The notes under the pieces: generated by a model
What the model was told of the DNA's origin: nothing
The model's input: the letters and a program-made list of their open reading frames with translations, nothing else
Databases searched by the model: none
Part shown: positions 357 to 56,961 of the stretch, one piece after another
Position numbering within the stretch: the first letter of the stretch is position 1
Layout: each line of letters starts with the position of its first letter
NCBI GenBank assembly: GCA_947053455.1
Contig: CAMRSV010000001.1
Span: 113,010 to 177,009 of the forward strand
From: an uncultured Alphaproteobacteria bacterium
Lineage (GTDB): Bacteria > Pseudomonadota > Alphaproteobacteria > Rs-D84
Reading direction: 5' to 3'
Length of the DNA stretch: 64,000 nucleotides
Program-made: the position numbers and the translations under genes

Positions 357-2138
357 ATGAACCTGTTTGATTCATCTTTTCTGTGTCTTGACATCGGGAC
401 AAGCGGCGTTCGCGGCATTGCACACCGAATAAAATCGGGTCAGATTGACAAGTCCGCGGTATTTTCAATACAAAGCCCGGACATCGCATTCGCATTGATG
501 TCAGTGGTTGACGAATTGGAACGCCAAATCGGGGTTCATTTTGATTCTGCCTTTGTTACCGGAAATTTTGGAAATGCCGCATTTGACATATCGTTAAAAA
601 GCATACGCTGGTCTGGGGAACATAAAATAACACCCGCCGACATTAAAATGCAGGCTTCACAAATAACACCACCGGACGGTTTTTTCCCCATGCACATAAT
701 ACCGCTGCGATATGATACGCCCGGGGCACGAAACATGGACAGTCCAATTGGCCACACGGATAGACAACTGATGTCTATATTTTCATCAATATCATATGCA
801 CACGCCAGACTGGACAAAATCCAGGCGGCATTGCGCCGCGCGCATATCCAGGCCAACGGATTCTATGACCCGCAATTTTTAATGAACGCCACCATACGTC
901 AAAAAAAGCAGGTTGCAATGTTCATTGATTTTGGCAATGAATTCGTATCTGCATCCATCTGGACGGATCGCGGACCTGTGTGGCTTGAAAAATTTCCAAA
1001 TGGCGGCGGTGAAATCACAACCGCAATTTCAGAAAAAATGCAAATAGACCCGACAGAGGCCACACGCATCAAACACGCCAGCATCAGCATGATACCACGC
1101 GAAATGGATAGGTTCACACCGGCCGATACCGCGTATGAATTTTCACGCGCTGACATTTGCGAAATTGCGGTTCCGCATATCATGAACACAATCGCCGCCA
1201 TACTTGAGGCGGCCAGCAGCGTTCTGGAAAAATACAAACCGTCCCTAATAACAATATGCGGTGGCGGCGCAGAAATCGACGGTATTTCAGACGTAATTGA
1301 AAGCGCCTTTGGAATAAAAGTTGACGTCGCACCGCCGGATGCGGTTGTACGTGCATTGTCAAATTACATATGGAATTGCGAAGAGGCACACCGCCAAGCC
1401 TATTCGGCCAGGCGCGAAAAATTAGCGCGTTATAAAGAAAAAATAACAAAATTATTTCACCGCCGCCGTATCAAAAAACGCACACGTTTCATCCCGATTT
1501 TGCCAAGCACACTGTGCTTTAACATGAAAAGTCCGGTAACATATTCACTGTTTCAGTCGGGCGGAATATCTATGATTCATGTCGATATAATGGATGGCCT
1601 TTATGTTGACCGCATTGCGGGCGGAATTGATGAACTAAAATATATTCGGGCACACACACGTGCACATCTTCATGTCCATTTAATGACCGAAAGCCCGGGT
1701 GTCTGGGCGGCGGACGCGGCGGCGGCGGGCGCGAACACAATAATATTATCGACAAACACATCGGGATTGCGCGCCGCGCTGCGCGCAGTGCGTGCGGGCG
1801 GCCGACGGGCGGGCGTCGCACTTAACCCCGATTCACCTGTTTCATTATTAAAACCGATTTTACGTGATGTGGATGAAATAATGGTGATGACTGTCGCCCC
1901 TGGTGCGGCAGGTCAGGCGTTTCATCCCGAATGCCTACATAAAATATCTGTACTGGCGGCGACACGCAAAAAATATGGATTAAAATTTACAATATCCGTG
2001 GACGGCGGAATAAACGACAAAACGGCGCCCCTATGCTGGGAGGCTGGTGCCGACCTGCTGGTTAGCGGTTCATACCTGGCACGCAGTTCTGATTTTCCAC
2101 TTGCGGTCCAAAGCCTGCTAAAGAAAAGCGGTGATTAA
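357..2138 (+). CDS. FtsA-like actin-fold ATPase (about aa 1-365) fused in-frame to ribulose-phosphate 3-epimerase (about aa 375-593)
   Basis: N-terminal LCLDIGTSGVRG and ITICGGGAEIDGI motifs are typical of FtsA/PilM actin-like ATPases. The C-terminus has the Rpe hallmarks IHVDIMDG, HLHVHLMTESP, MVMTVAPGAAGQAF and ISVDGGIN. It is a single ORF with no stop between the domains. An in-frame ATG at 1524 could also give a stand-alone Rpe of about 204 aa. Confidence 0.6.
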   Translation: MNLFDSSFLCLDIGTSGVRGIAHRIKSGQIDKSAVFSIQSPDIAFALMSVVDELERQIGVHFDSAFVTGNFGNAAFDISLKSIRWSGEHKITPADIKMQASQITPPDGFFPMHIIPLRYDTPGARNMDSPIGHTDRQLMSIFSSISYAHARLDKIQAALRRAHIQANGFYDPQFLMNATIRQKKQVAMFIDFGNEFVSASIWTDRGPVWLEKFPNGGGEITTAISEKMQIDPTEATRIKHASISMIPREMDRFTPADTAYEFSRADICEIAVPHIMNTIAAILEAASSVLEKYKPSLITICGGGAEIDGISDVIESAFGIKVDVAPPDAVVRALSNYIWNCEEAHRQAYSARREKLARYKEKITKLFHRRRIKKRTRFIPILPSTLCFNMKSPVTYSLFQSGGISMIHVDIMDGLYVDRIAGGIDELKYIRAHTRAHLHVHLMTESPGVWAADAAAAGANTIILSTNTSGLRAALRAVRAGGRRAGVALNPDSPVSLLKPILRDVDEIMVMTVAPGAAGQAFHPECLHKISVLAATRKKYGLKFTISVDGGINDKTAPLCWEAGADLLVSGSYLARSSDFPLAVQSLLKKSGD

Positions 2139-15372: not shown

Positions 15373-15523
15373 TTGTTTTTCTCCTTGCTTGTATTAAACG
15401 CCTTTATGATTAAGGGCGAGGTTTTTTAACCCCGCCCTTAAAAAATTATTTTTTAAGAACAATTAGATTATACATCCCGATTACGCAAATGCAAGGAAAA
15501 AGTCAAAAAAAACATTAAATTAT

Positions 15524-16618
15524 TTGACGGTCGGGCTTTTGGGCTTTATACTGCAAAATATGAAAATTATTAATCGATATTTTTTGCGCCAATTGGTGAC
15601 CATTTTTATAATGCTGCTGATGGTTCTGACGGGGCTGGCCTGGATGGTGCAGATTATGGCACTGATGAAATTCCTGCTGAACTATGGCGTTAATGTGACA
15701 AGTTTCCTGGGGCTAACCATTTTAATGGTGCCGTTTATCGTGTCTATTATAGTTCCGTTCGTAACATTTATCGCCGTTATTTTCGTATACAATAAAATGA
15801 TTGCCGATAACGAGATAACCGTCATGGCGGCATCAACCCTGTCACCGGCACAGATTGCGCGCCCGGCACTAAAATTGGCAACGGTACTGACGGTGATAAA
15901 TTTCATTTTAAACCTGTGGGTGGTTCCGGCATCCCAACGACAATTTTATAACACACAATGGAATCTGCGATATGGTCTGGCGCATATGAAATTACAGGAA
16001 TCGGCCTTTACGCAATTATCGCGCGGACTGGTGGTATATGTGGACAAAGTGTCCGGGCACGATTTGTCACAGGTAATGCTGTCCGACATGCGCGACGAAA
16101 AATCGACAATGACGATATTTGCAGAAAAGGGAAAACTAGTTTCAACCAGCCGCGGTCTGTCAATCATAATGGACAATGGTTCCATTCAATCAACGGGCGA
16201 CACCGTGGCAATCGGAACGTTTGAATCATTTGACATGGATTTAAACGTTGCAGAAAAGAATATTGATGACGCGTTCCGTGTTCGGCGGGTGCCGACGGGC
16301 GCGTTGCTGTCTTCGGTTCTGGATTCACCGACCGCCAAACGTCACAAAGTTGTTGTAGGTGAACTGGCGAACCGCTTTATCATGCCGTTTATGAATCTGC
16401 TGCTGGTGGCGTTGTGTACATTAATTTTACTGCGTACATCATTGTTGCGTCGCCGTGCCAGTTTTGCGCCCGTATTGGCCGTTGGCGCAATGGCCAGCAC
16501 AATGGGACTGTTCATGGCCGCATCCAGTATGATTGAAAATTTGACGCAGTTAGGGTTGCTGGCCTTAACAGTGGCAATAGCGATAACTGTTGTATTTGGT
16601 GTATTATATAAGAAATGA
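15524..16618 (+). CDS. LptF/LptG-family LPS export permease (YjgP/YjgQ)
   Basis: Six-TM permease followed by lptD. A likely true start is ATG 15560 (MKIINRYF). Confidence 0.7.
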   Translation: MTVGLLGFILQNMKIINRYFLRQLVTIFIMLLMVLTGLAWMVQIMALMKFLLNYGVNVTSFLGLTILMVPFIVSIIVPFVTFIAVIFVYNKMIADNEITVMAASTLSPAQIARPALKLATVLTVINFILNLWVVPASQRQFYNTQWNLRYGLAHMKLQESAFTQLSRGLVVYVDKVSGHDLSQVMLSDMRDEKSTMTIFAEKGKLVSTSRGLSIIMDNGSIQSTGDTVAIGTFESFDMDLNVAEKNIDDAFRVRRVPTGALLSSVLDSPTAKRHKVVVGELANRFIMPFMNLLLVALCTLILLRTSLLRRRASFAPVLAVGAMASTMGLFMAASSMIENLTQLGLLALTVAIAITVVFGVLYKK

Positions 16619-18627
16619 AAATCAGTATCGCCTTTTTTGCCATATTGCCGATTTGCGCGAACGCCATAGCCGCGCCCATGGATTTCAATACCCCAAAAAC
16701 AATAACTGCCGATAAAATAGAATATGACATAAAGTCCGAATCCATAAAAACCAGCGGCACAACAGAAATCGTAAATGCCGGCGGCGGACGCGTAACACTT
16801 ACGGATTCATACCTGTCACAACGGGGCGCCGAACTGTCCGGTGACGATATAAAAATATGGCTGGGGCAGCATATTTATCTTGAATCAGATAACATAACGC
16901 GCGAAAACAATAAAACAATTGCACGCGACGCACTATTTACGGCATGCGATGGTTGCAATCCGATTGGCAACGCATGGGAAATCAGTGCAACCAAAATAAT
17001 ATATGATGAAACCGATGAAATGATGCGGTTTCACAATCCGGTATTCTGGATATACAACGCACCGATTATCTGGATTCCATACTATGAAATGCCCGGCCCC
17101 GGCGTAAAATATAAAAGCGGTTTGTTAATGCCGGGCTTTGAATCAACCAATAACATGGGCAGCCAGATTAACCTGCCGATTTACATAAACTTTTCCGATA
17201 CACATGACGCAACACTTACACTGTCATATTTGACCAAGGAAAATCCCCTGTTTCAGTTGCAGCATCGGTTAAACCTGCCACATTCGGAATTCCGAACAAA
17301 GGGCTCTTTTACGCGCAATCGCCAAGGCGAAAACCGTTGGCACATATTTAACAATGATGTTATAGAAATGGGGCCATATGCGCGGGCATCAATATTCCTG
17401 GAACGCGCATCGGATAAAACATACCTGCAAAAATATGGATTCTATGACGATCAGCCATATTTGGATTCTGGTGCAAAGTTGGAATTGTTTGGCGTGTCCA
17501 GCTATATCGTTGCAGATGCGCATATCTTCCAGGAACTGCGCAGTACGTCTGTAAATTATTCAACGCCGTCTGGTAACATTTTGCCCAATGTGCGCGCCGT
17601 ATATCAGACCAAGCCGATATACAAGGAAACCTATGCCACTTTTGGTGGCGACGTTCTGGGAATATACGACGACGGCACAACCAGCCAACGCTTAATCGGC
17701 GAAGCGCGCATTGTATCACCATGGACGCTATGGGGCGGCAACCGCATAACGGCAAGCGTTGCCACACGATATGATATATATAATTTTAGCAACACGGACA
17801 TGATTGATGGCGACAAGTTCACGGGGCTAAAGACAAGGTTCCTGCCCAGTGGATATGTGGAATGGGGGTTGCCAATGTTTCGCCCAACATCAACATGGAC
17901 ACAAATTCTGGAACCGCGCGCAAGACTGACGATAATGCGCCATACAGATAAAGACCAATTTGCACTGAACAATGATTCGGCGGGCGCGTTTTTATCGGAC
18001 ACCACATTGTTTTCAGATAATCGGTTTGCGGGTCTTGATTTATGGGAAAACGGAACCTTTGCCGATTACGGTGTGCGTTGGGCGGCGTTCAACGACAAGG
18101 GGCATAATTTCGAATTGTTTTTTGGGCAAACATATGACTTCACCGATCGTGCCGCCACAGATTCAAACAGCGGATTTTTTAACGGTCAATCTGACTATGT
18201 CGGGCGAATCAATTATTCAAATTCAAAGTGGGTTGATTTATCAACAAGATTCCGCTTTGGGCGGGACAATTTTGCACTGCGCCACATGGAAACAAGCGCG
18301 GTTATCGGAACCCAGCGAAACTATTTCAACATAGGCCATATCTGGTCACAGCGTTTCATAGACGAACAAACACTGGGTGACGATATAAACGAAGCAATAA
18401 CAGGGATTGGTATCCAATTGACTGGGCGATGGTCTGTGCGCTTTAATGCGGCATATAACTTTGAGGAAGGAATGTTCCAGCGCCACACGGGCGAACTGCA
18501 TTATGATCACCCGTGCTATTATCTGATATTCGGATATCGCCGGGACAATGCATCCAAGGAAGACTATGTAGGAAATACAACCTACCAGTTCCGTTTTGGT
18601 ATGAGCATAGAGGGGCAGCGCTATTAA
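16615..18627 (+). CDS. lptD: LPS-assembly protein LptD (OstA/Imp)
   Basis: Signal peptide, 670 aa beta-barrel, OstA-like N-terminus, aromatic C-terminus. Start overlaps the permease stop. Confidence 0.8.
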   Translation: MKISIAFFAILPICANAIAAPMDFNTPKTITADKIEYDIKSESIKTSGTTEIVNAGGGRVTLTDSYLSQRGAELSGDDIKIWLGQHIYLESDNITRENNKTIARDALFTACDGCNPIGNAWEISATKIIYDETDEMMRFHNPVFWIYNAPIIWIPYYEMPGPGVKYKSGLLMPGFESTNNMGSQINLPIYINFSDTHDATLTLSYLTKENPLFQLQHRLNLPHSEFRTKGSFTRNRQGENRWHIFNNDVIEMGPYARASIFLERASDKTYLQKYGFYDDQPYLDSGAKLELFGVSSYIVADAHIFQELRSTSVNYSTPSGNILPNVRAVYQTKPIYKETYATFGGDVLGIYDDGTTSQRLIGEARIVSPWTLWGGNRITASVATRYDIYNFSNTDMIDGDKFTGLKTRFLPSGYVEWGLPMFRPTSTWTQILEPRARLTIMRHTDKDQFALNNDSAGAFLSDTTLFSDNRFAGLDLWENGTFADYGVRWAAFNDKGHNFELFFGQTYDFTDRAATDSNSGFFNGQSDYVGRINYSNSKWVDLSTRFRFGRDNFALRHMETSAVIGTQRNYFNIGHIWSQRFIDEQTLGDDINEAITGIGIQLTGRWSVRFNAAYNFEEGMFQRHTGELHYDHPCYYLIFGYRRDNASKEDYVGNTTYQFRFGMSIEGQRY

Positions 18628-19852: not shown

Positions 19853-20965
19853 ATGTCAAACAAACCCATTTTGTTTAACATGACCGGCGGCGAATTGGAA
19901 AAGTTTGTCACCGACATGGGACAGCCGCGTTTTCGTGCGACGCAAATAAGCCAATGGTTGCAACGTGGTGCGCCAAATGCGGCGGCGATGAAAAATCTGC
20001 CGGAAACTTTGCGGCACGATTTGGATGCGGTGGCGCAAACACTGCCCGTACAGATTGTAAAAAAACTGCAATCGGCAGACGGCGAAACAACTAAATTTTT
20101 GCTGCAACTGCAGGACGGCGAACAAATCGAATGTGTTCTGATGCGTACAACATACGGCAACAGCGTATGCGTCAGTTCCCAGGCTGGATGCGCCATGGGT
20201 TGCAAATTCTGTGCCAGTACACTGCTGGGGCTGAAACGAAATCTGTCCGTAAACGAAATACTTGCCCAGGTATTGATTGCACAATGGGAACTGCGCAGCG
20301 CGCATGCAACAAAATGCAACAGCCGCCCAAACGGCGATGCGAACAACGGCGATGTGTCACATATAGTGATAATGGGCACGGGTGAACCACTGCAAAACAC
20401 CGAAAATGTAATCGGTTTTATTGAACGGGCAAATGCAGACCTTGGCATCGGGTGGCGGCGAATAACATTATCCACATGCGGCGTCGTTCCCGGCATACGC
20501 GATTTGATAAACTGGGGCCGGCCAATAAATTTGGCAATATCACTGCATGCGCCAACCGATGAATTACGCAGTCAAATTATGCCAATAAACAATCGCTATA
20601 AACTAAACGAAGTGTTGGCGGCGGCGGATGATTTTGCCGCACTGCATAATCGGCAATTGATGATAGAATACATACTGCTGGGGCGTCGTGATGAAAATGG
20701 TGACACAGTTTTATATAATTCATCGCCCGAACATGCGGAACAATTGTCAAAATTACTGGCGGGAAAAAATTGCATGGTAAACTTGATACCATGGAACGCG
20801 GTTGATGAGCGTGATTTCGCATCCATTTCGGGTAATGCGGTACACCGTTTTCAGGACACGCTGATTAAAAACGGAATTCATACGCGCATTCGCCGGGAAC
20901 GCGGCACAGACATCGGCAGTGCATGCGGGCAACTGCGACTGAACAGCGCCCGAAAAAAAGATTAA
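19853..20965 (+). CDS. rlmN: Dual-specificity rRNA/tRNA adenine-C2 methyltransferase RlmN (radical SAM)
   Basis: CAMGCKFCAST radical-SAM motif. 370 aa. Confidence 0.85.
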   Translation: MSNKPILFNMTGGELEKFVTDMGQPRFRATQISQWLQRGAPNAAAMKNLPETLRHDLDAVAQTLPVQIVKKLQSADGETTKFLLQLQDGEQIECVLMRTTYGNSVCVSSQAGCAMGCKFCASTLLGLKRNLSVNEILAQVLIAQWELRSAHATKCNSRPNGDANNGDVSHIVIMGTGEPLQNTENVIGFIERANADLGIGWRRITLSTCGVVPGIRDLINWGRPINLAISLHAPTDELRSQIMPINNRYKLNEVLAAADDFAALHNRQLMIEYILLGRRDENGDTVLYNSSPEHAEQLSKLLAGKNCMVNLIPWNAVDERDFASISGNAVHRFQDTLIKNGIHTRIRRERGTDIGSACGQLRLNSARKKD

Positions 20966-21236: not shown

Positions 21237-21533
21237 CTACCTCTGTCTTGAATCAACTAATTTAAATTTCACGCCGTGCCACATTGTATCGACATTTCCA
21301 CAAGGAAAAACGTTTAATTTACATTCAGTTTGACTAATATCTGATTTCGGTGCCGTAATAACACGCGCCGATGCCGACGGGTCACCAAAAATCACATGAG
21401 TATATTTCGCGGACACCATGCACAACATTGAAATACATGCTAAAATAATCGTCGCAGAACGTTCCGGATATTTATCCAGGGCGCGACTTGTCAACCTATC
21501 AAAATTTACCAAAATTCTATTCATTTTTTGCAA
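21237..21533 (-). CDS. Hypothetical small membrane protein at the distal end of the pilus-like cluster
   Basis: ORF with one hydrophobic segment. No canonical prepilin leader. Confidence 0.25.
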   Translation of the reverse strand: MQKMNRILVNFDRLTSRALDKYPERSATIILACISMLCMVSAKYTHVIFGDPSASARVITAPKSDISQTECKLNVFPCGNVDTMWHGVKFKLVDSRQR

Positions 21534-21612
21534 ACACTTATCAGTCTATATTTTTCATACACAAAAATATAGACAAAATTTGCAAAATGTCGACTATTTT
21601 ATATAAAAATTA

Positions 21613-22362
21613 TTAATATTTTGATTTTTTGCGGTTTTCGCGCGCCATTTCTTTGGCTTCACGGGCATCACGCGCTTCCTGTATAAGTTTAATTTTATCG
21701 CGCTTTATGTTTTCAATATATGTTTGTTGGTACAATTCCTGATATACATTACGGAAAAATCGGTCAAAGACGGGCGCCAATTCATCCGGATAACAGGTCA
21801 AAGGAATCTTTTTAGATCTGTTAGATTCCCTATCAATGTATAATTCCTTGCACGGCTTGCGCTTTGCATATAATTCGGGGTAATTTTTCCGTGCCTCGCT
21901 GTTAAAACGGCGGCTAACTGACAAATCGGGACGAATTCCGACAACATCGCCCAACTTGTTGTCGATAATGTCTGATAACAACGGGTCAATACGTTCAAAC
22001 GCAACAAAATATCCATCCGGAACGCGCGTTAAATCTATATTGCTGCGCCGGGCGATATCCGCAGCCATACCCGGATCATGCTGAATTTCATTTAGCATCT
22101 TTGGCGTCAAATTTATATCTATTTTACATGTTTTGCATGATTTTTCCTGAACTTCGGTTTGTGTTCTGGACGCAATTATATGTGTAAGTGTAACAAACCC
22201 CAGCACCATTACAACCAATATTAATAATACAACTTTTCCCGATACCCCGTGACTGTTATTGATGTTTGTTTCAGTTATGGAATTATTATTGCCACGTTGA
22301 ATAACGGTTTTACCAGATTTTGGTTTTATGAAACTGATAAGCCAAGATAATATCTTCGTCAT
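21613..22362 (-). CDS. Hypothetical bitopic membrane protein (pilus-cluster associated)
   Basis: Basic N-terminus, one TM (KVVLLILVVMVLGFVTLTHIIA), K/R-rich C-terminal tail. Lacks Glu+5, so not a canonical type IV pilin. Confidence 0.3.
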   Translation of the reverse strand: MTKILSWLISFIKPKSGKTVIQRGNNNSITETNINNSHGVSGKVVLLILVVMVLGFVTLTHIIASRTQTEVQEKSCKTCKIDINLTPKMLNEIQHDPGMAADIARRSNIDLTRVPDGYFVAFERIDPLLSDIIDNKLGDVVGIRPDLSVSRRFNSEARKNYPELYAKRKPCKELYIDRESNRSKKIPLTCYPDELAPVFDRFFRNVYQELYQQTYIENIKRDKIKLIQEARDAREAKEMARENRKKSKY

Positions 22363-22428
22363 GAAAACAATCCCTTCCGCATTTTTATAATATAGGATTT
22401 ATTTCCTTTGGGCAAGTCAGATTTAATT

Positions 22429-23532
22429 TTATCCCAATGCGGTGGTTATTTGGTCTTGCATCTGGAATGTTCCCAGAACAACCCATGCGATTATAGCGGA
22501 CACCAGCAAAATACCAAGACTGTTCATCGTACTGGAAATTGATTCCATTTTTCGGATGGATTCATCCAAATAATCATTTGCCACCGCAGACAAATTCGCG
22601 TCAAATCCGTTCATATCTGCATATATCGTCAAATCCCCGATTATTTCACGACTTGGAAAATCGCGGTCTGCATGATTAAGCGCCATTCCCAGATTGTCAC
22701 CGTTTGCGATAAACCCCAGTGTTCTATCCAATATACCGCCCAAATACCTGTTTGCATTATCGGCCAACATACGCATAGCAGCAGGTATTGTCACGCCCGC
22801 CGACACCATTGATGCCAAACTCATCAACCATGTGACGGAAACTTGAATCTTGTATATGCTCCATGGGGGAATTTCATCAAATTTAGAACGCAGCCATCCG
22901 GACCAGTTGGAAAGACTCAACCATATAACCAGCACGGACAGCAAAAATCCAATTACAATTGCAAACCAATAATTTATCGCAAAATCAGACATCCATATCA
23001 GTCCACGCGCAGTTCCGCGCCAAACAACATCATCACCCGCAACAGATGCCAACGGTGGCACCAGATAAACACCTACCATGATGATTATTCCAAATGTCAG
23101 CGCCAATAAGAACAACGGGTACGCAATTGCGCTGCGCATGGCGCGCTTTATACGTTGTGTACCATCGACAACACGACCGACATTTTCCAGCGCAACCACC
23201 AAATTGGACAAATTCCCCGACGTCACCAGCAACGTTTCATCCATCGGCACCCAGCCGCGCGTTGCATCGGAAAAGCTCATTCCGCGTTCCAGGTTTTTTT
23301 GCCATTCACGCATAACAATTGCAAAGGGTTCGTTTGGCTTTTTTCCGTTGTCGCTTTCTATCATTTCCAGACGACCCAGCGCATCCATCAATGTAAAATC
23401 ATTGCGCAGCAACGATGCCAATTTGCGCGCTGTCGCCATTCGCTTTTGTGTATTGAGCCGGAATACCATTTTGGCATAAAGTTTTTCGAGCGCTTCCATA
23501 TCAATACACCCCCGGTCTATCCAACAGACCAA
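22429..23532 (-). CDS. GspF/PilC-family inner-membrane platform protein (R64 PilR / TcpE / BfpE-like)
   Basis: 367 aa with three TM blocks in GspF-like topology. Immediately downstream of the GspE-type ATPase. Confidence 0.55.
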   Translation of the reverse strand: MVCWIDRGCIDMEALEKLYAKMVFRLNTQKRMATARKLASLLRNDFTLMDALGRLEMIESDNGKKPNEPFAIVMREWQKNLERGMSFSDATRGWVPMDETLLVTSGNLSNLVVALENVGRVVDGTQRIKRAMRSAIAYPLFLLALTFGIIIMVGVYLVPPLASVAGDDVVWRGTARGLIWMSDFAINYWFAIVIGFLLSVLVIWLSLSNWSGWLRSKFDEIPPWSIYKIQVSVTWLMSLASMVSAGVTIPAAMRMLADNANRYLGGILDRTLGFIANGDNLGMALNHADRDFPSREIIGDLTIYADMNGFDANLSAVANDYLDESIRKMESISSTMNSLGILLVSAIIAWVVLGTFQMQDQITTALG

Positions 23533-25135
23533 CCCATCTTTCCAACTCGTCTACACCGATTATTCCGCGCAGCATTAATTCCATGGCCGATTCTTTTAAT
23601 GTACGGCCATCCATTTCTTCTAGCCAATAACGTATCGCACCGTCTGTATTCCCGGACAAGGCTAAACCCAAAAATTCACTATTTGTGATAATGATTTCGC
23701 CGGCCTTGATACGCCCCAACGTTCCCGTTCCGTTGCATTCCGTACATCCAGCACCACGAATATAAACTTGACGCAGTCCAATTTCTCCAAATGCGTCCAA
23801 AACACGCTGATACGCCGGATTTTCTGGATGGTCCGCCAAACGTTCCCGGCAATATGGACATAATTTTTTAAAAAGACGCATGGAAACCAAACCGCGCATC
23901 ATCGTTTCTTCTTTAAGTTTGAAACCTTCTATGCCTAAATCCAGCAATCGCGTCAAAGCCGCGATGGCAGAATTGGCGTGCAGCGTTGTCCAAACATTAT
24001 GTCCAGACAACGCGCCACGTATAGTCAACTGCGCCGCGGCCAGAGTTCTGATTTCCCCCACCATCAGCGTATCAGGGTCGCTGCGTAATGCCGCGGCCAG
24101 TGCCTCGGTATACTTTTCGTCACGCTGTTCTTCGGTCGTAGTGTTTACAACCGGCATTTGATGGGCGCCGAATATTTTTTGTTCGACCGGATTTTCAACC
24201 GTTATCATGTTTATTTCATAATGCCGCTCTTTTAGCATAAGCGACATGTTCCGCGCCAATGTTGTCGATTTTCCGGAACTGGTGGGACCTGCGACAATCA
24301 CCAGCCCCGTCGGGAATGCTCGCAGACGCATCAACAACCTTTGTTCATATTCACCAAATTCCTGCTCGGTTTTTATACCTTCTGATGGATTATCATACAG
24401 TAGGCGCATAACAACGTAACGACTGCCGAAGGCAATGGGATTGAACTGCATACGAATGCTTAATATCCCCGCTGGCAGATATAAATCCTTGGTTCCGCGC
24501 AATGGTGTGCGCCCATCTTTCTGTGCGGACTGATATTCATTCTGCGCATAGTTAGCGTTTGACATGTCGGACGACGCAAATGCCGCGCGAACAAAAGATT
24601 CACCCCACCCAGAGTTATATTCCAAAACCGGCTGCATACTTCCGTCGATACGGAAATAAATCGTTGTCTGGTCTGCAACCTCTATGTGAATATCGGAAAC
24701 TTTTTGTGCAGCGGCCTTGGCAATTATATCGACAAAATCCTTTTGCATTTGGTTGTCGAAATCGCGGGTTGCGCGGCCACTGCCCAATTTTAATTCATAA
24801 GACTTGTATATCGCGGAAACCAAGCCCAAATCAGAATAGAACGGGCGGCGCATAGCGCGTCCCCGCTTTTCCAACAAATCCAGAAACGCCAGTACGCGCC
24901 CGTCATATCTATGCGTACGTGAAATTATAATCTCGCCGCCGGAAAAATACGCAATCAAACTCTGTGTATCTTTGGGCAATTCCAGTTCCGCCCCGGTCGC
25001 CGTCAGCAGTCGGTTCCCATTTGCAAATAGATAGTCAACCACGTCTTTTATTTCGGCGTTTTCCAACCCCGTTGGCACGGAATCTGTTTGCACCAGAGAA
25101 ATATTTTCCAAAGAATCGTTGTTCTGCTTTTTCAT
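23501..25135 (-). CDS. GspE/PilB-family secretion ATPase (R64 PilQ / BfpD-like)
   Basis: Walker A VAGPTSSGKSTT. Tetracysteine zinc motif CPYC...CTECNGTG, characteristic of the GspE/PilB C-terminus. Confidence 0.75.
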   Translation of the reverse strand: MKKQNNDSLENISLVQTDSVPTGLENAEIKDVVDYLFANGNRLLTATGAELELPKDTQSLIAYFSGGEIIISRTHRYDGRVLAFLDLLEKRGRAMRRPFYSDLGLVSAIYKSYELKLGSGRATRDFDNQMQKDFVDIIAKAAAQKVSDIHIEVADQTTIYFRIDGSMQPVLEYNSGWGESFVRAAFASSDMSNANYAQNEYQSAQKDGRTPLRGTKDLYLPAGILSIRMQFNPIAFGSRYVVMRLLYDNPSEGIKTEQEFGEYEQRLLMRLRAFPTGLVIVAGPTSSGKSTTLARNMSLMLKERHYEINMITVENPVEQKIFGAHQMPVVNTTTEEQRDEKYTEALAAALRSDPDTLMVGEIRTLAAAQLTIRGALSGHNVWTTLHANSAIAALTRLLDLGIEGFKLKEETMMRGLVSMRLFKKLCPYCRERLADHPENPAYQRVLDAFGEIGLRQVYIRGAGCTECNGTGTLGRIKAGEIIITNSEFLGLALSGNTDGAIRYWLEEMDGRTLKESAMELMLRGIIGVDELERWVGLLDRPGVY

Positions 25136-25156
25136 TTACTGCGCTTATATTTTGGT

Positions 25157-25870
25157 TTAGCGGTTTGCACTGATGTTTAGGTTTTGCGTCATACCATCTT
25201 TGATAAATTCAACCCCGTCGTACAATGATATTGATTTGACCGTGAACCCGTCCAACGTCTTGCCAACAGAAATCCGTTTATTTTGACCGGTCTGTAAATC
25301 CGTGACTGTTGCCTGTAATTGGGAACCTGCACCAAAAACATTAACCAGGCGATATTTTTCACCTAAATCAATATCAGTTTCAATCGGTTCATTGGCAACT
25401 TGCACCGGCGCGGTTGCAGATGCAGCTTCTGCCTGGGCTTGCAGTCGCTCCTTTTCACGGGCAAGACGGGCGGCCTCTGCCTCTAATTTCGCCTTTTCAG
25501 TTTCTATTTCCTGCTTTTGCGCCTCGGCACGCCCGGACAGCGTGTCTATTTCCATATGCAGTTTTATTTTTTCTGCCGCCAGCCGGTCTAACTCCAAATC
25601 CAACTGTGCACGTTCTTTTTCCAGCTGCATTAAAACCTTTTCCTGCTCCAATGTAGTTATCTGTTGAAAAAGGGAACCATCCGCGTTATACGCCGCAACC
25701 GCATCCGCGGTAAGTGAATCTAATTCATCATCTGTGTACCCCATATCCGGCGTCTGTGCAACCATCATCGGTTCGCTTTGAAAATCGGACGTGTCCATTT
25801 CTGCGAATGCCGGTGCGATACATGTCGCGACAAAAACAGACATTATGAAAAAATTTATCTTATTTGGCAT
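25157..25870 (-). CDS. PilP-like periplasmic protein (signal peptide, long coiled coil, C-terminal beta domain)
   Basis: C-terminus LVNVFGAGSQLQATVTDLQTGQNKRISVGKTLDGFTVKSISLYDGVEF matches the PilP/GspC HR-domain pattern. Confidence 0.4.
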   Translation of the reverse strand: MPNKINFFIMSVFVATCIAPAFAEMDTSDFQSEPMMVAQTPDMGYTDDELDSLTADAVAAYNADGSLFQQITTLEQEKVLMQLEKERAQLDLELDRLAAEKIKLHMEIDTLSGRAEAQKQEIETEKAKLEAEAARLAREKERLQAQAEAASATAPVQVANEPIETDIDLGEKYRLVNVFGAGSQLQATVTDLQTGQNKRISVGKTLDGFTVKSISLYDGVEFIKDGMTQNLNISANR

Positions 25871-27122
25871 ATATTATCACCTCATAGTTCCATATCCGAC
25901 GTGATGCATCCCAAGCGCATCGCGTCATATAAACACCGCCGAATTCATCGAATATACGCATAAATTGCGACGGTACAAGTTTTGATTCAACCGCAATTTC
26001 CACAATGTTTAGTGACATCGTGTCAACCCCATTCGACAAAACATCAACAACAATCTGGGATTCAATTGGCGTTCCGATTGACTGAAAAGCAGACTGAACA
26101 TCGCGCAAGAGTGTTTCCGCATCGCGTTCATCTTGACTTGCCACCGATTGAACCGCAGGCAACGGCACACTAACCCGCAGCATATCCTCGTTTTGCTTTG
26201 TAACGATAGCACCCGGCATTAATTCTGTTGCCATTACGTAAAAATCATCGAGAGTTCCAAAATCACGTTGAAATTCGGCGACGGCGTTCAATTCTGTGCA
26301 CTCAACAGACGTCTGGTTCCATCCGGTTACATTCTGCATTACAAATGCCATCGCACGAAAACACATATCCGCCCGCGCGGAGACATCCGGTAAACTGTCA
26401 TATGGCGGTACAATCGGTTCCGGTTCTGGTTCCTTTTCAATATTAAACTCTGCGTCTAGTTCACGATTTTTTTCTTCTATTTGTCGCTTGTACTCGGCCG
26501 CCAGTTCCGGATTTATCTGTGAAATCTGGGGGCGCGGCATCATCATTTGATGCAGCGGTTCGCGAAATATTGACCCGATAAGAGCCAAAAACAAAACAAT
26601 TATTACCAATGGCCCAAGAGCCGCACGAACACGGCTAATAGAACGTAAAACCGCGCGTGCGCCACCGGAAACAACCTCGGAAATAGTTCGTTCAACCGCG
26701 CGCGGCATACCCCATGTACCGGGTGCGACAAACGTCCCCCAATCTGGTATCTGGGATAATTTTGAATATTCAGCGCGAGCTTCGCTTTCCGTTGCAAATA
26801 ATTTGTCTTCTAAAATGACACCGTTTCGCATCGCAACCAGGTAATAACCCTTGTCTACCTGAAACACGGCTAAAAAAGATGAAAATTCCGGGAATGAATC
26901 CACAATGGAGGCCGCCGCGGATGGCATTGCGGTTCGATGTCCAAATTTTCGCGCCCCCAAGCCAACCATTGAACGATATTCTGTAAACAGGTTAAGTTTT
27001 TTATCAACGCCACGTGCAAGACTGCGTGCATAATTACGTGCAAAAAAGCCCGTTGCAACCGGCTGCCAAAACAGACCGACCGCGTATTTTTTTCTGTTAA
27101 CAGATATGACTTGGTTTGCCAA
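25860..27122 (-). CDS. PilO-like pilus assembly protein of the type IVb (R64 / S. Typhi pil) family
   Basis: 420 aa. N-terminal VISVNRKKYAVGLFWQ-type start and a central TM, as I recall for the R64 PilO accessory-protein family. Assigned from memory of that family only. Confidence 0.4.
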   Translation of the reverse strand: MANQVISVNRKKYAVGLFWQPVATGFFARNYARSLARGVDKKLNLFTEYRSMVGLGARKFGHRTAMPSAAASIVDSFPEFSSFLAVFQVDKGYYLVAMRNGVILEDKLFATESEARAEYSKLSQIPDWGTFVAPGTWGMPRAVERTISEVVSGGARAVLRSISRVRAALGPLVIIVLFLALIGSIFREPLHQMMMPRPQISQINPELAAEYKRQIEEKNRELDAEFNIEKEPEPEPIVPPYDSLPDVSARADMCFRAMAFVMQNVTGWNQTSVECTELNAVAEFQRDFGTLDDFYVMATELMPGAIVTKQNEDMLRVSVPLPAVQSVASQDERDAETLLRDVQSAFQSIGTPIESQIVVDVLSNGVDTMSLNIVEIAVESKLVPSQFMRIFDEFGGVYMTRCAWDASRRIWNYEVIIYAK

Positions 27123-27234
27123 TTTCTCCCTCTTACGATAAATTATAGCACAAAAAGATAAACCTTGGCAAATATAGAATGAAAAATACCCGATGAAAAT
27201 ATCGCCGGGTATTCAAACTTTTTTTATCTGCGTA

Positions 27235-27648
27235 TTACTTGCATCCGTATACCGGGTCACACACAGGTCCCACACCATACACCGCGGTCGAACCTGCACC
27301 ATTGGCCGCCGTGTGAACACGGTTCGGATACGGACAATCATAAACGTTTGCCGCCAATACGAATGCGCGTTCAGGGCCAAATATCACCCATTCATTTGGA
27401 CGCGTGCGCTGGCTGGTTATCCAGTATGCATTTCCGCCACGCGCCTGATCGACGATACGGTTTTCTAAATAACGACGGGCATCATCCGCGTCATATACAG
27501 AAACTTCTGATTCTATTTTGTACAAATACGTACAACCCATTGGCTCTGCATTAAGTTGTGTCAAATATTCGCTGCCGTTTTCATTCTTTATAAGTCCGCC
27601 GCACGCCGTCAGTGTTGTGAGCATTACGACCGCAAAAATCTTTTTCAT
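27235..27648 (-). CDS. Lipoprotein (lipobox LTAC), first gene of the pilus-like module
   Basis: MKKIFAVVMLTTLTACGG. 137 aa. Confidence 0.5.
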   Translation of the reverse strand: MKKIFAVVMLTTLTACGGLIKNENGSEYLTQLNAEPMGCTYLYKIESEVSVYDADDARRYLENRIVDQARGGNAYWITSQRTRPNEWVIFGPERAFVLAANVYDCPYPNRVHTAANGAGSTAVYGVGPVCDPVYGCK

Positions 27649-27684: not shown

Positions 27685-28641
27685 TTAAGCCCTTTTCTGT
27701 CTACTTTCAACTATATCATAATTTGCCGGGTCGCTAAACAATTTTTTCAGCACTAGATTGTTCATCGCGTGGCTACCCTTGTATGATTCGACGCAACCGC
27801 ACACAAATCCGCCACTTGTCGCCATGTCACCGATTACATCTATGATTTTATGCCTAACAAATTCATCGGGCCAGATTACCGAATTCAATGTCCCGTCGCC
27901 GGCATCATTCAATGCGATAACATTTGTCGCGTCCGCGCCACGACCCATGCCGCGCGCCTTTAGATATTCCCATTCGGAATATTTTCCAAATGTACGCGCG
28001 CGCGATATGTTCTTAACAAAATTAGCAACTGATTTTTTCGAACCATCAAAAGAATATTCAAAAGTCTGTGTCCCGATTATTTTTTCCGGATAAACCAATG
28101 TTGCCCGCACATCCAGCGTTTTGCCACCATTTGGCGACAGTTTCACAAAACCATTTGACCGGCGCCCAGAAACAATGTTAAAAAAATAAATTTTCATGCG
28201 CGTCAAAAACGGCAATTCGCGTAAAATTTCATGCGCCCTTGCAATAACGGTACGCTTTACAATGACGCGACGCGTGAACGCGCCCACCGGTTGTGCGACC
28301 GCTGAAATTTTGGAATAAAATTCGGCTGCACTACCGTCCAATATCGGTGTTTCTGGCCCATCAATTTCAACAATGGCGCTATCTATGCCCGACAAAAACA
28401 ACGCGGCCATCAAATGCTCAATCGTTTGAACGTGCGCACCATGAACACTGCCAATTGTGGTGTTACGCATTTTTGTTTCACCGACATTATCATATCGCGC
28501 CATAATTAAATCAGAAGCCTTTATATCCGTGCGGCGAAAAAATATGCCATATTTTTTAGAAGGCTTTATAACCATGTTAACCGGCAATCCGGAATGTATA
28601 CCTACACCAGAAATTTTAATTTGTTTTTCAACTGTTCTCAT
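27685..28641 (-). CDS. lpxC: UDP-3-O-acyl-N-acetylglucosamine deacetylase
   Basis: HTIEHLMAALFLSGIDSAIVEIDGPETPILDGSAAEF motif. Confidence 0.9.
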   Translation of the reverse strand: MRTVEKQIKISGVGIHSGLPVNMVIKPSKKYGIFFRRTDIKASDLIMARYDNVGETKMRNTTIGSVHGAHVQTIEHLMAALFLSGIDSAIVEIDGPETPILDGSAAEFYSKISAVAQPVGAFTRRVIVKRTVIARAHEILRELPFLTRMKIYFFNIVSGRRSNGFVKLSPNGGKTLDVRATLVYPEKIIGTQTFEYSFDGSKKSVANFVKNISRARTFGKYSEWEYLKARGMGRGADATNVIALNDAGDGTLNSVIWPDEFVRHKIIDVIGDMATSGGFVCGCVESYKGSHAMNNLVLKKLFSDPANYDIVESRQKRA

Positions 28642-30915: not shown

Positions 30916-30992
<77 letters not shown>

Positions 30993-35115: not shown

Positions 35116-37536
35116 TTAAAAATCACCGGCACCCTGCTTTTTTAGGTATTCGGCAACAAATGCGCTGCCGTATTGACGGTATAGTTCCTCGGCCAACAAC
35201 ACTGACGAACGACCGGATTCAAACAGTCGCAATAAACTACCCAGTCCGCCCAGTTCTGTATTTAAAATAACAGATTCACCGGTCACTGGCCGCGATAACA
35301 ATACCGCGCGTTTTAGATTCGGATATGCCTTGCCCTGAATAAACGCCATTTCAATCGGATTTAGATTCCAATGTGCATAATCGTTTGCGTCCGCCCCGGG
35401 ATTACGGAAGAACATCACCGTCTGCACCTGGCCACGAACAACGTCGCCAATCCCCAGTTTATCTAAAACGTTCGCACGCTGAAACGCGACCATGTATGCC
35501 TGGCGATTTTTGCGCCCTTCCTGCAGGCCCATTATAAAATTATCACGGAACATCTTGTTTTCCAGCATTGGCGCCGTTTCGTCAATCATAATCAGTGACG
35601 GATTACCGCCAGATACGGTTATATTATTAATTCTGTGCAATATATAAGATATAACCGCAGGGGCAAGCGTCTCGTCCTGTAATATATCTGTAAAGTCAAA
35701 TGTGGTAAGTCGCGCCTGCAAATCAAGCGTATCGGACGCATCATTAAACATGTCGCCGTACTGCAACGGATCAACCCATTTTTTCAGCGCCGGACGCATG
35801 TTGCCCGCGGATGAAAAACAACTTTCCCACAAGTTTTTAAGCAATCTGTCACGTTCGGGCAAATAATCAAAATTTACCGAAACCGCACGCGCGATTTCAT
35901 CCATGGACGTGGCGTCATTTTGCCCTGTTATCATTGCAAACCAACGTCGCAGGAACGCCCTGTTTGCCGCTGTGTCCGCCATTTTCAGCGGATTCAGACG
36001 TGTTTCAAATTGTGCGGCCATGGGGTCGGTGTTTTTTTCGCGCCCTTGCATTGTGACATATTTTCCACCAACCGAAAGTGTAAATATCTCTGCACCCTTG
36101 TTTCTATCAAAGAAAAAGGCTTTTAACTTTTGATGACGCATTGCCTGCGCAATCAGGAAACTAAACAACGTAGTTTTACCACCACCGGTCGGCCCTATGG
36201 TAAGGGTATGCCCCACCGCCGCGGGTGCATCAGATACATGAAATTGAAACTGATACGGGGTTCCCTGCGCCGTCGGGAATACAACCAATGGTCCCGACCC
36301 CCAGTCGGAATTTGCAACACCACGCGGCTGGGTTGACATGGGAATGCTTATCGCGGCCGTCCGCGACAACATCTTGAAACTGCGCGGAAAAACATCAAAA
36401 CCCGGAATCTGTGAAAACCACGAAACCTTTGATGCAAATGTTTCAACAATTGGCGACACACCAAAAGACGCGGAAATCTTTCTAAATTCATCGATATATT
36501 TATCCAGTTTCCCCGGCGTTTTTCCAAACAATACGAACAACGGATAATAATTTACCAAGCTTTGATTACCGGACAGATTTTCATCCATCGCGCGATTTGC
36601 GGCGTCAATCTGGGAATGAGTGGAATCATTTTCCTCTTCTGCGGTTGTGCGACGCTGACGCAGGGCAACCTCTACATCCGCGGCGCCCATTACGCGGAAA
36701 CCGTTCATACAAATCATTTCAGTCTGAATTGTGGAAACGGTGGTAAAAAATTCCTCGTCCAGGTAATCGGGCGATATGCGAAAGGACAACATCGCCGCAT
36801 AAGATTCTTCGTTGCCGCTTATATACCTAACCAGGCCATTTTGCAAAAATTCCACATTATCAACGGCAACCAAATCAGAAATATTGTTATCACACACGGC
36901 GGGCGTGGGCTTTGAAATCGGGGACAAAATACGCCCAAAAAATCGCGCCATATTGTCTGGCGACGTATTTTTCAATACGCTTGGTCTGTACGCCGCCAAA
37001 ATCGATTCAATGTAATTTCCATACTGATTTAATTTGCCACGCGCGGACGCACCAGACACCGACAGCACAATATAATAACTGTTCAGAAAAATGCGCAATC
37101 CCTGCGATTTCCATTTGTCATATATTTTTTGCAGCACAGGCTGATGAAACTCGTAATCTGTGTTTTCGTCGGCTGCGTCACGAACCATATAAAAACGCAA
37201 AGTGACACTGGGGTCATGTATCTGGTTGAACAATTGCGTGCGTAAATCCAAAAATTTTTCACGGGTTGCGTCATCTTGCATACTGGTTTGAACCCCAACA
37301 ACACGATATACACGAACAAGTGACCCGTCCGTTAATTCAATTGAATTATCGTCAAAAACTGTCTTGAACGGCAGGTATCTGGCATATGATGCATAGCCAA
37401 ACCGAGGAAACACCCGGCGAACCAATGCCGGCACGTACATCATCATCACAACAAAGACCAGCACCGTTATCATCGCCAGAACGATTGTTGTTATCGGGAA
37501 TCCGCCACCTGCAAAGTATTCAAAAAATCCGTTCAT
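35116..37536 (-). CDS. virB4: Type IV secretion system ATPase VirB4
   Basis: 806 aa. N-terminal TM, Walker A TIGPTGGGKTTLFS, overall VirB4/TrbE architecture. Confidence 0.85.
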   Translation of the reverse strand: MNGFFEYFAGGGFPITTIVLAMITVLVFVVMMMYVPALVRRVFPRFGYASYARYLPFKTVFDDNSIELTDGSLVRVYRVVGVQTSMQDDATREKFLDLRTQLFNQIHDPSVTLRFYMVRDAADENTDYEFHQPVLQKIYDKWKSQGLRIFLNSYYIVLSVSGASARGKLNQYGNYIESILAAYRPSVLKNTSPDNMARFFGRILSPISKPTPAVCDNNISDLVAVDNVEFLQNGLVRYISGNEESYAAMLSFRISPDYLDEEFFTTVSTIQTEMICMNGFRVMGAADVEVALRQRRTTAEEENDSTHSQIDAANRAMDENLSGNQSLVNYYPLFVLFGKTPGKLDKYIDEFRKISASFGVSPIVETFASKVSWFSQIPGFDVFPRSFKMLSRTAAISIPMSTQPRGVANSDWGSGPLVVFPTAQGTPYQFQFHVSDAPAAVGHTLTIGPTGGGKTTLFSFLIAQAMRHQKLKAFFFDRNKGAEIFTLSVGGKYVTMQGREKNTDPMAAQFETRLNPLKMADTAANRAFLRRWFAMITGQNDATSMDEIARAVSVNFDYLPERDRLLKNLWESCFSSAGNMRPALKKWVDPLQYGDMFNDASDTLDLQARLTTFDFTDILQDETLAPAVISYILHRINNITVSGGNPSLIMIDETAPMLENKMFRDNFIMGLQEGRKNRQAYMVAFQRANVLDKLGIGDVVRGQVQTVMFFRNPGADANDYAHWNLNPIEMAFIQGKAYPNLKRAVLLSRPVTGESVILNTELGGLGSLLRLFESGRSSVLLAEELYRQYGSAFVAEYLKKQGAGDF

Positions 37537-37539
37537 ATT

Positions 37540-37836
37540 TTACGCCACCAGTTTATTCGGTATCTTTTTTTTCATCAGTTGTATTTTTGCCGCGACAATC
37601 TGACCCAGTTGTGGATCGCGCTTTGAAAATGCCGCCAAAATCATATGTACCACAATGACGGACAACAAAAACCACAAAGGATTAATTACACCCTGCCCCT
37701 TTGTAAGAACCAAGCTTACGACAAAAATCGCCATAAATATCAAAAACTGAAGGGTAAAGTTTATCACAGCCAGCATATATGGCACATAAAATATACGCGC
37801 CGGGTTTGCCAATGCTTTCAGAACTTGCTGTTTCAT
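37540..37836 (-). CDS. virB3: Type IV secretion system protein VirB3
   Basis: About 98 aa with two TM segments and the NPLW...PLWF-like motif. Stop is 4 nt from the virB4 start. The long ORF to 37932 is probably upstream read-through. Confidence 0.7.
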   Translation of the reverse strand: MKQQVLKALANPARIFYVPYMLAVINFTLQFLIFMAIFVVSLVLTKGQGVINPLWFLLSVIVVHMILAAFSKRDPQLGQIVAAKIQLMKKKIPNKLVA

Positions 37837-37868
37837 AATCTCTCCCCTTGTGTTAAAAATTATAACAA

Positions 37869-55871: not shown

Positions 55872-56789
55872 TTAGCGTGTTTTAATGTTTTTATAAAAAT
55901 GCTTGTTTTGGCCGGCGATTTTTATAACCAAAGAATCTATTTTTGTAATCAAGTTAGTTTTTGTGAGATTTGATGAATGTATCCATGGGTTAACCGTGCC
56001 GCGACGACTTTCGAATTGCCATAATGGTTCCCATATGTTTAAGTCCGGATTAAACAGCGAATACTGCGCGGTTTCGCAATGTTCGCATGGTATATATAAT
56101 ATTTGTCTGTTGGCCAGCTTTTCGGAAATTGCCTTGCGGTAAAGGTGACTGTGTTTTAAAAAATATTCGCCGGCATGTCTAATGGTTATGTCTGCAATTT
56201 TTTGGTTATTGAAATCAATCGGCCATTCCAGATTGGTTGCCTTTATTTCTGCTAAAATCTCGTTGCGCGCCAATCGTGTCAAGTTATCCAATCCTGGGTA
56301 CTTTTTCCCGGTATCAAATTCATAATCCAATGCGGCGATTATTTCGGCGGTACATGAAACTATTTCATTAAAAACCTCTACACGGGCGCGGGTTGTTCCG
56401 GTGTAAACCGGTTTGTTGACCAGAGCCGCCTTTCGTGCATGTTCCATTTCGTGTCGCATCACAGTAATTCTGCGCGTGCAAATATATTTGCAAAAATTTT
56501 GTATTTCAGTGGTGCTATCCTGTGCCAGATAGTGGTTAATTTTGATTCGGTTTTTATAATTATTAAAACTTCCCAGCGTATATCGTTTTTTTATTTTATT
56601 AAAATTTTCACGGCTGATATAAATCGTATCGTGTGTAAAATCTAGTTTTTGTGGCCATAATGGCATACCGGTATTTGCCGGTATTTTTTCGATTGTTTTG
56701 TGTCTTGATATGGGGCCGTTTGTTGTCATAATAAACGCCACAGACAAAACAAATGCAATTGATAAAAACGCTTTTTCTGAATATTTCAT
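55872..56789 (-). CDS. Hypothetical secreted or membrane protein with an HEMEH metalloprotease-like motif, inserted between rsmG and parA
   Basis: RHEMEHARKAAL HExxH. Alternative starts at 56813, 56789 and 56666. A copy of the palindromic repeat lies at 56667-56684 inside the N-terminal region. Confidence 0.4.
   Translation of the reverse strand: MKYSEKAFLSIAFVLSVAFIMTTNGPISRHKTIEKIPANTGMPLWPQKLDFTHDTIYISRENFNKIKKRYTLGSFNNYKNRIKINHYLAQDSTTEIQNFCKYICTRRITVMRHEMEHARKAALVNKPVYTGTTRARVEVFNEIVSCTAEIIAALDYEFDTGKKYPGLDNLTRLARNEILAEIKATNLEWPIDFNNQKIADITIRHAGEYFLKHSHLYRKAISEKLANRQILYIPCEHCETAQYSLFNPDLNIWEPLWQFESRRGTVNPWIHSSNLTKTNLITKIDSLVIKIAGQNKHFYKNIKTR
56660..56690. repeat. Palindromic repeat family, variant copy (TACCGGtatttgCCGGTA + T-run)
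   Basis: Same arms as the other copies. Located within or just upstream of the N-terminus of the HExxH ORF. Confidence 0.55.
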
Positions 56790-56961
56790 ACAAAAAATAT
56801 AGTTCAAAAACACTTGTTTGTCAATAAAAACGTTTGTTATTTCATGTGAAACAAACTTTATCTCATTGTTTATTCTATGTTTTTATAATTTTGTGTTTAA
56901 ATATCTTGACATGGTAAAGGTGGTTTTAATAACCTTCAACATGAAAAAGAAACGGATTAAA

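Follow-up and report, generated by a model that had tools for sequence, protein, structure and literature searches.

Here, we describe a group of genes resembling the assembly genes of type IVb pili (T4bP) in a 64-kb stretch of DNA, referred to below as the window, from an uncultured alphaproteobacterium. The host is Candidatus Enterousia, of the GTDB order Rs-D84, and appears as 'uncultured Rickettsiales' in some records. Seven open reading frames (ORFs), all on the minus strand, lie in the window between rlmN (19853–20965, plus strand) and lpxC (27685–28641, minus strand). The initial annotation of this DNA had taken all seven for a single module. Only four of them form it. The ORFs of 249 and 98 amino acids are found just in this species and its nearest relative (93% and 37% identity there, respectively); in addition, the product of the former resembles BstA.

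The conserved four-gene module, pilO2-pilP-pilQ-pilR, occupies positions 22429–27122 of the minus strand, and its genes overlap or are almost contiguous. The first gene, pilO2 (25860–27122), encodes a bitopic alignment protein of 420 amino acids and overlaps by 11 nt with pilP (25157–25870), which encodes a 237-amino acid protein that is probably of the R64 PilP family. They are followed by the gene for a pilQ-type assembly ATPase of the GspE/PilB family (23501–25135; 544 amino acids) and by that for a pilR-type inner-membrane platform of the GspF/PilC family (22429–23532; 367 amino acids, or 356 with the start at 23499 given by other gene callers). The 112-bp gap upstream of pilO2 contains a sigma-70-like promoter match on the minus strand (27142–27171; TTGCCA and TATAAT at a spacing of 18, TG-extended, 11/12), which is a match to the consensus alone and no evidence of function.

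Identification of the module proteins

The proteins were identified through Pfam and NCBIfam profile searches, synteny, a profile match to the PDB and their database relatives. The initial annotation had described the 420-amino acid protein as PilO-like, and it matches the Pfam family PAP_PilO (PF06864) with 44.5 bits, above the gathering cut-off of 26.7. A profile built from diverse members of the PilO2 family and compared with the PDB retrieved the two solved representatives of PF06864, namely BfpC (3vhj, E 4e-6) and PilO2 of Burkholderia pseudomallei (4byz, E 2e-4). We therefore read PilO2 as a bitopic connector similar to GspL, made up of an actin-like domain of the PilO2/BfpC type in the cytoplasm, one transmembrane (TM) segment and a periplasmic ferredoxin-fold domain like those of GspL, GspM and PilO. 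As single queries against PDB sequences, PilO2, PilP and the 137-amino acid lipoprotein encoded next to lpxC gave no match, a profile of the PilP family gave none against the PDB, and a Foldseek search with the PilO2 model was uninformative.

The pilP gene stands between pilO and the ATPase gene, the same position as in R64. All 29 of the 29 homologues of its product that were scanned match the NCBIfam model TIGR03021 (pilP_fam) at E<=1e-3, the best of them at 2.5e-11. In the family alignment, the protein consists of a signal peptide, an almost invariant coiled coil and a C-terminal beta domain. The coiled coil (LFQQITDLEQEKVLMQLEKERAQLDLELDRLAAEKIKLHMEIDTLSGRAE, alignment columns ~150–200) hardly varies throughout the order and stays near-invariant where the C-terminal beta domain and PilO2 diverge to 40–50% identity, a pattern in the alignment that suggests a tightly constrained interaction surface.

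The remaining two products correspond to what the initial annotation had proposed, an ATPase with a C-terminal tetracysteine and a GspF/PilC-type platform. The ATPase belongs to T2SSE (PF00437, 207.8 bits), and its boxes are intact in the translation: the Walker A motif GPTSSGKST, the Asp box ITVENPVE, the Walker B motif DPDTLMVGEIRT and the His box SGHNVWTTLHANSA. Its zinc tetracysteine motif reads CPYC...CTEC. The platform has two T2SSF domains (PF00482, 75.7 bits).

In a collection of plasmids, the best matches of PilO2 and of the ATPase fall in the same loci, and those of the ATPase are the ATPases of T4bP loci, from Bosea (35% identity) and from E. coli MPF_I plasmids (33%). The platform is 35% identical to that of the Bosea T4bP locus (E 3e-72). 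Membership of the ATPase and platform in a complete type II secretion system (T2SS), which the initial annotation had considered, is contradicted by the T2SS equivalog models, which give the window proteins 216 bits for GspE and 67 for GspF, far below the cut-offs of 630 and 424. Moreover, no GspC, GspD or GspG-K set was found.

In our reading, the operon at positions 22429–27122 probably encodes the motor and the inner-membrane/periplasmic alignment subcomplex of a type IVb pilus, one of the same kind as the R64 thin pilus or Burkholderia Tfp7, and the machine as a whole would be dispersed, vertically inherited and apparently functional. We hold this view with good confidence. The kind of pilus named by the initial annotation, that of R64 PilO/P/Q/R, finds support in the sequences and fold of the proteins and in the synteny of their genes with annotated T4bP loci. 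The component families are already known, and the NCBI pipeline names the proteins 'type 4b pilus protein PilO2'; what is notable is the dispersal of the pilus genes and their retention in a genome of ~0.9 Mb.

Conservation of the module in related genomes

A 2025 paper describes Enterousia as a gut lineage that has genomes of <1 Mb, does not respire and retains few biosynthetic pathways, nucleotide biosynthesis being among those lacking, and predicts an obligate symbiont or parasite. It also reports a high coding density and no accumulation of pseudogenes.

For comparison, we used 80 species genomes and 80 metagenome contigs that carry the module (~160 loci). Most of these loci retain the block DUF374-lpxK-lpxC-lipoprotein-pilO2-pilP-ATPase-platform. 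Synteny with lpxC persists at 38–50% PilO2 identity, in samples from rumen and termite gut, and is broken in eight genomes and a few distant contigs. On the other side of the module, most related genomes have the platform gene followed by an opposite-strand gene of 189 amino acids and a gyrB/parE-type gene.

Across 106 related genomes, the mean identity to the window proteins is 84% for the ATPase, 73% for the platform, 70% for the lipoprotein, 67% for LpxC, 63% for LpxK, 58% for PilP and 57% for PilO2. The place of the ATPase and platform among the best-conserved genes of the neighbourhood argues against decay, and the fixed position among housekeeping genes, down to 38% PilO identity, argues against recent acquisition.

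These results bear directly on a degenerating acquisition, one of the explanations offered by the initial annotation. The genes would then be a non-functional remnant of a T4bP cluster acquired horizontally from a plasmid or an integrative and conjugative element (ICE). R64-type T4bP loci are indeed usually found on plasmids and ICEs, the genes are scattered, and the peptidase, PilT and PilV were not found in the DNA that we fetched. However, the catalytic motifs of the ATPase are all intact; the ATPase, the platform and the secretin described below are better conserved than LpxC and LpxK over >100 genomes; and the module holds the same chromosomal position in most relatives even at the lowest PilO identities. 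The genomes of the lineage also combine high coding density with a lack of pseudogene accumulation. A comparison of GC content between the cluster and its flanks, which the initial annotation had recommended, gave no sign of foreign origin for the module itself, whose GC equals that of the flanks, and a lower value of 0.39–0.40 for the interval from 21 to 23 kb. We consider a decayed remnant highly improbable and continue with the module as part of a vertically inherited pilus machine.

Secretin and TcpQ at a second locus

The initial annotation had seen a partial machine, with no secretin, peptidase, lytic transglycosylase or Glu+5 pilin. This holds for the 64-kb window, in which we found no secretin, TcpQ, A24 peptidase, lytic transglycosylase or Gly-1/Glu+5 prepilin. 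Together with the presence of virB3-virB4 8 kb away, it would agree with a novel T4bP-derived surface or secretion machine that does without a secretin and a pilin, perhaps by using another conduit such as the VirB type IV secretion system (T4SS). The wider genome and its relatives tell against such a machine.

At a related locus whose PilO2 is 44% identical to that of the window (L159), a TcpQ-like gene and the gene for a 559-amino acid lipoprotein secretin lie ~7 kb upstream of the module. This secretin has 819 database relatives; the best 120 of the 819 are 79–94% identical to it, and one is from Candidatus Enterousia merdequi. In the species closest to that of the window (PilO2 90% identical), TcpQ and the secretin share a 327,652-bp contig with the module at a distance of ~130 kb, and the pair is present in all close relatives examined.

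The pair can also be placed in the window's own assembly. Positions 1–30540 of the window are 100% identical to NODE_486 (coverage 7.8) of the assembly ERZ13632118, and NODE_891 (coverage 8.2) of the same assembly carries the secretin P0534 with TcpQ adjoining. P0534 is found again on a 362,456-bp NCBI contig, and the exact ATPase of the window is likewise on a 362,456-bp contig.

The protein is clearly a secretin (PF00263, 53.2 bits against a cut-off of 27.5) with the lipobox IVSGC, and its TcpQ partner, encoded directly upstream, matches PF10671 with 64.9 bits (cut-off 27). Relatives in which PilO is only 44% identical have secretins that are 82% identical, so the secretin must be under strong constraint. 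That the ATPase and secretin are so highly conserved in genomes of this small size speaks for an important function.

A machine lacking a secretin is thus at odds with a TcpQ protein and a PilN-like secretin in the window's assembly, on the same contig as the module in the closest species, with the strong constraint on that secretin, and with prepilins conserved across the lineage (see below). We give it very little weight, and the partial machine of the initial annotation is better seen as one locus of a dispersed T4bP, with the secretin encoded elsewhere in the assembly and prepilins encoded elsewhere in related genomes. Instead of a single contiguous operon, the parts occupy at least three chromosomal loci among housekeeping genes, ~130–146 kb apart in two genomes. 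There is a methodological caution in this: machines are often scattered in reduced genomes, and absence from one window does not equal absence from the genome.

In the closest species (L173), dprA and dnaA (15415–16437 and 16759–18048, both on the plus strand) lie 4–7 kb downstream of the TcpQ-secretin pair. To judge from its synteny with another relative (L089), the pilin gene of this species is expected ~10 kb beyond dprA and dnaA. The locus for the outer-membrane part and that for the pilin may therefore be loosely clustered, as a second group close to the replication origin.

Prepilins and large pilin-like proteins

Canonical prepilins were seen at four related loci (L069, L083, L024 and L089). 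Two of these (L069 and L083) have an ORF of 152 amino acids 2 kb upstream of pilO2, beginning MKSESG/RSLIEV (the slash marks the processing site), and a third (L024) has a 154-amino acid prepilin 9 kb downstream of the module. On the 886,885-bp contig of GCA_964313715.1, the pilin gene is flanked by uvrC and an rluD-like gene, and ~146 kb separate it from the module.

The major pilin family comprises 628 database clusters at 70–91% identity. Among the 118 full-length pilins that we aligned, all show the pattern MxQESG/RSMIEMLGVLAIMG, with a class III signal peptide (Gly-1) and Glu+5; 115 of the 118 have exactly two Cys.

Three consecutive genes for pilin-like proteins of 403–451 amino acids, with no family match, are present at two related loci (L069 2002–5869 and L083 2023–5896, both on the minus strand). 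The N-termini of their products are prepilin-like (RG/ASITEV, RG/NMLVEL and RG/SFLMQA), and the genes are followed by those for a zinc-ribbon membrane protein and a secreted protein of 150 amino acids. From their sequences, the three large proteins, which are present in at least some species, could be minor pilins or tip adhesins.

Weighing the assignment

Several observations weigh against the assignment to a complete type IVb pilus. Two components score below the cut-offs of their best models: PilP of the window matches TIGR03021 with 32.9 bits, slightly under the cut-off of 34.65, and the best NCBIfam match of the secretin, TIGR02520 (PilN), reaches 245.5 bits, under the equivalog cut-off of 287.65. 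The pilin is atypical as well. Its leader has 5–6 residues in 98 of the 118 aligned sequences and the mature protein has ~148 amino acids, which is type IVa-like or pseudopilin-like and not the long type IVb leader; accordingly, the PilS family (PF08805), for which a leader of ~15–30 amino acids and a large pilin are expected, gives only 14.6 bits against 22. The pilin of the window strain itself was not located through the cluster membership of ten pilin clusters.

The search for the processing and accessory parts was also negative. In ~2.7 Mb of related DNA, which is highly redundant and covers few genomic neighbourhoods, we found neither an A24 prepilin peptidase nor PilT, a lytic transglycosylase or a PilV-type adhesin. 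For the peptidase, an E. coli A24 sequence served as the query in tblastn and phmmer, and we scanned the fetched ORFs for the motif GxGD[x]K with at least three TM segments. The 2025 paper, the only one describing these genomes, reports no type IV pili for Rs-D84, and our literature search found no paper on type IV pili in either Enterousia or Rs-D84.

A different function for the same machine has to be considered in this context, mainly either in DNA uptake, as a competence pilus, or in protein export after the manner of a T2SS, in the way that the toxin-coregulated pilus (TCP) exports TcpF. The pilin is small, has a short leader and shows a weak likeness to ComG and GspH pseudopilins; some NCBI records carry the name type II secretion system protein; parts of the literature describe some type IVb pili as secreting proteins; and imported DNA would be useful to bacteria without nucleotide biosynthesis. 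The gene dprA is 4 kb from the secretin gene, but dprA is widespread and not diagnostic. Neither comEC nor comEA was seen, and no search was made for them. The three pilin-like proteins of 400–450 amino acids fit tip adhesins better than a short pseudopilus, and the components match T4bP families rather than those of T2SS, with the GspE and GspF models far below their cut-offs. On balance, we think it unlikely that uptake or export is the main function of the machine, and we retain the reading as a type IVb pilus.

Other genes in the window

The ORF next to lpxC (27235–27648, minus strand) encodes the 137-amino acid lipoprotein, recognized as such by the initial annotation and confirmed by the lipobox LTAC; it has two invariant Cys. 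The gene lies between lpxC and pilO2 in ~130 related loci, where the protein is 32–91% identical, and is missing upstream of pilO2 in eight genomes whose module has left lpxC. No match was found in Pfam, NCBIfam or the PDB, and an AlphaFold2 model from the single sequence was unusable, with a mean confidence (pLDDT) of 40. PilL, PilM, TcpQ and a pilotin were considered as identities for the lipoprotein and rejected for lack of sequence support. It is a conserved neighbour, and its membership of the pilus machine is possible but unproven.

The 249-amino acid protein (21613–22362, minus strand) carries a BstA_C abortive-infection domain (PHROG 6287, E 2.7e-11; PADLOC BstA, E 3.8e-11). It has one N-terminal TM segment. 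The match to the BstA profiles starts only at about position 158, and the part of the profiles that precedes the domain apparently has no counterpart in the protein. The neighbouring 98-amino acid ORF (21237–21533, minus strand) may not be a real gene. The GC content over 21–23 kb, the stretch that contains the two ORFs, is 0.39–0.40, compared with 0.45–0.49 in the pilus module, which supports a separate origin. The stretch is probably a small insertion of defence genes between pilR and rlmN. We had also considered the two proteins as non-canonical pilins, because of a Gly followed by a hydrophobic helix, and rejected this since the larger is BstA-like and neither is conserved outside this species and its nearest relative. 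Neither protein belongs to the pilus.

The virB3-virB4 genes mentioned by the initial annotation are indeed present, at ~35.1–37.8 kb. They stand alone (35116–37840, minus strand; 98 and 806 amino acids) and are followed by a gene for a 203-amino acid protein without a family match and by dTDP-sugar genes. This scattering of virB genes is Rickettsiales-like and parallels the scattering of the pilus genes. Between these genes and the module, a tRNA-Met gene (30916–30992) looks like the integration site of a mobile element that differs between strains: GCA_964017585.1 is 99.3% identical to the window from 30952 on, inside the gene, and differs upstream, where it has a Bro-N gene (L086, 1–1904).

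Two further ORFs of the window deserve mention. A 593-amino acid ORF beside ftsQ (357–2138, plus strand) joins an FtsA-like actin-fold N-terminal part to a C-terminal domain of ribulose-phosphate 3-epimerase (PF14450 and PF00834) and, if real, is an unusual fusion. A 313-amino acid protein without a Pfam match (55872–56813, minus strand) has an N-terminal hydrophobic segment and the HExxH motif HEMEH, which makes it a possible metalloprotease, secreted or anchored in the membrane, from a family not yet described.

Proposed mechanism and significance

In the mechanism that we propose, the hexameric PilQ ATPase would turn the PilR platform and so lift the processed pilin out of the inner membrane. 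PilO2 would couple the cytoplasmic ATPase to the periplasm, as do GspL and BfpC, and PilP would connect this motor and alignment subcomplex with the secretin (TcpQ/PilN), the channel by which the filament would leave the cell. The machine would be split between pilOPQR beside lpxK-lpxC, the locus of TcpQ and the secretin, that of the 154-amino acid pilin and the three large pilin-like genes. The pilin locus is known from related genomes only; the predicted mature protein begins RSMIEM and has a C-terminal disulfide pair.

The most likely role of such a pilus would be to attach the bacterium, which is predicted to depend on other cells, to mucus or to the cells of a partner or host. A bolder proposal, for which we see only a modest chance, is that the pilus is a core and possibly indispensable organelle of the epibiotic or parasitic life of Rs-D84, whose genomes measure ~0.8–1 Mb, and serves attachment to cells or uptake from them. 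It might act together with the VirB T4SS, much like the thin pilus of R64, which assists a T4SS during mating in liquid, and might mature without an A24 peptidase.

Enterousia and Rs-D84 are common and uncultured in human and animal guts, and every component class of the pilus that we could test, which leaves aside the prepilin peptidase, has been kept in them. The higher conservation of the motor and secretin than of the neighbouring genes for lipopolysaccharide biosynthesis points to a surface filament that is central to the biology of these bacteria. Imaging, enrichment or capture, and tests of the hypothesis of a symbiotic or parasitic life could be aimed at the secretin, the pilin and the three large pilin-like proteins.

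Comparison with known systems

The loci of Bosea pBSY19_1 and of an E. coli MPF_I plasmid have the order TcpQ-secretin-PilO2-PilP-like-ATPase-platform-PilT, followed by the pilin, PilV, an A24 peptidase and a transglycosylase. This layout is the 'R64 thin pilus variant' of R64, PAPI-1, SPI-7 and Burkholderia Tfp7 (PMC3984277); the same source gives PAPI-1 and Tfp7 as having no prepilin peptidase of their own in the locus. The Tfp7 locus of B. pseudomallei, an R64 thin-pilus variant, comprises TcpQ2, PilN2, PilO2, PilP2, PilQ2, PilR2, PilS2, PilM2 and PilV2.

The Enterousia system shares with the thin pilus of the IncI1 plasmid R64 (pilI-pilV; related to those of PAPI-1, SPI-7 and E. coli MPF_I, L088) a secretin whose best family is PilN (TIGR02520), PilO (PF06864) and a probable PilP (TIGR03021), and its PilQ and PilR are each ~33% identical to their counterparts there. 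Unlike the Enterousia genes, R64-type loci are found on mobile elements, serve conjugation in liquid and include genes for a peptidase (pilU), a transglycosylase (pilT) and a shufflon adhesin (pilV). In Enterousia, the genes are on a vertically inherited chromosome, and counterparts of pilU, pilT and pilV were not found in the fetched DNA.

The closest annotated relatives in the plasmid collection are alphaproteobacterial, those of pBSY19_1 in Bosea sp. RAC05 (L087), with the same gene order and identities of 30% for PilO2, 35% for the ATPase and 35% for the platform. There, in contrast to Enterousia, the genes are contiguous and lie on a megaplasmid, in a locus that includes PilT and PilV, and the Enterousia secretin is only ~25% identical. 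The bundle-forming pilus of enteropathogenic E. coli (BfpC, BfpB/BfpG) and TCP of Vibrio cholerae (TcpQ/TcpC) differ in having other accessory proteins, long-leader type IVb pilins and operons on plasmids or pathogenicity islands. Finally, GspL-GspM-GspE-GspF of the T2SS has an analogous architecture, in which a bitopic protein, actin-like in its cytoplasmic domain and ferredoxin-like in its periplasmic one, is combined with a zinc-binding ATPase of the GspE type and a GspF platform; the Enterousia system is not a member of this group and has its nearest counterparts in the R64 type of pilus.

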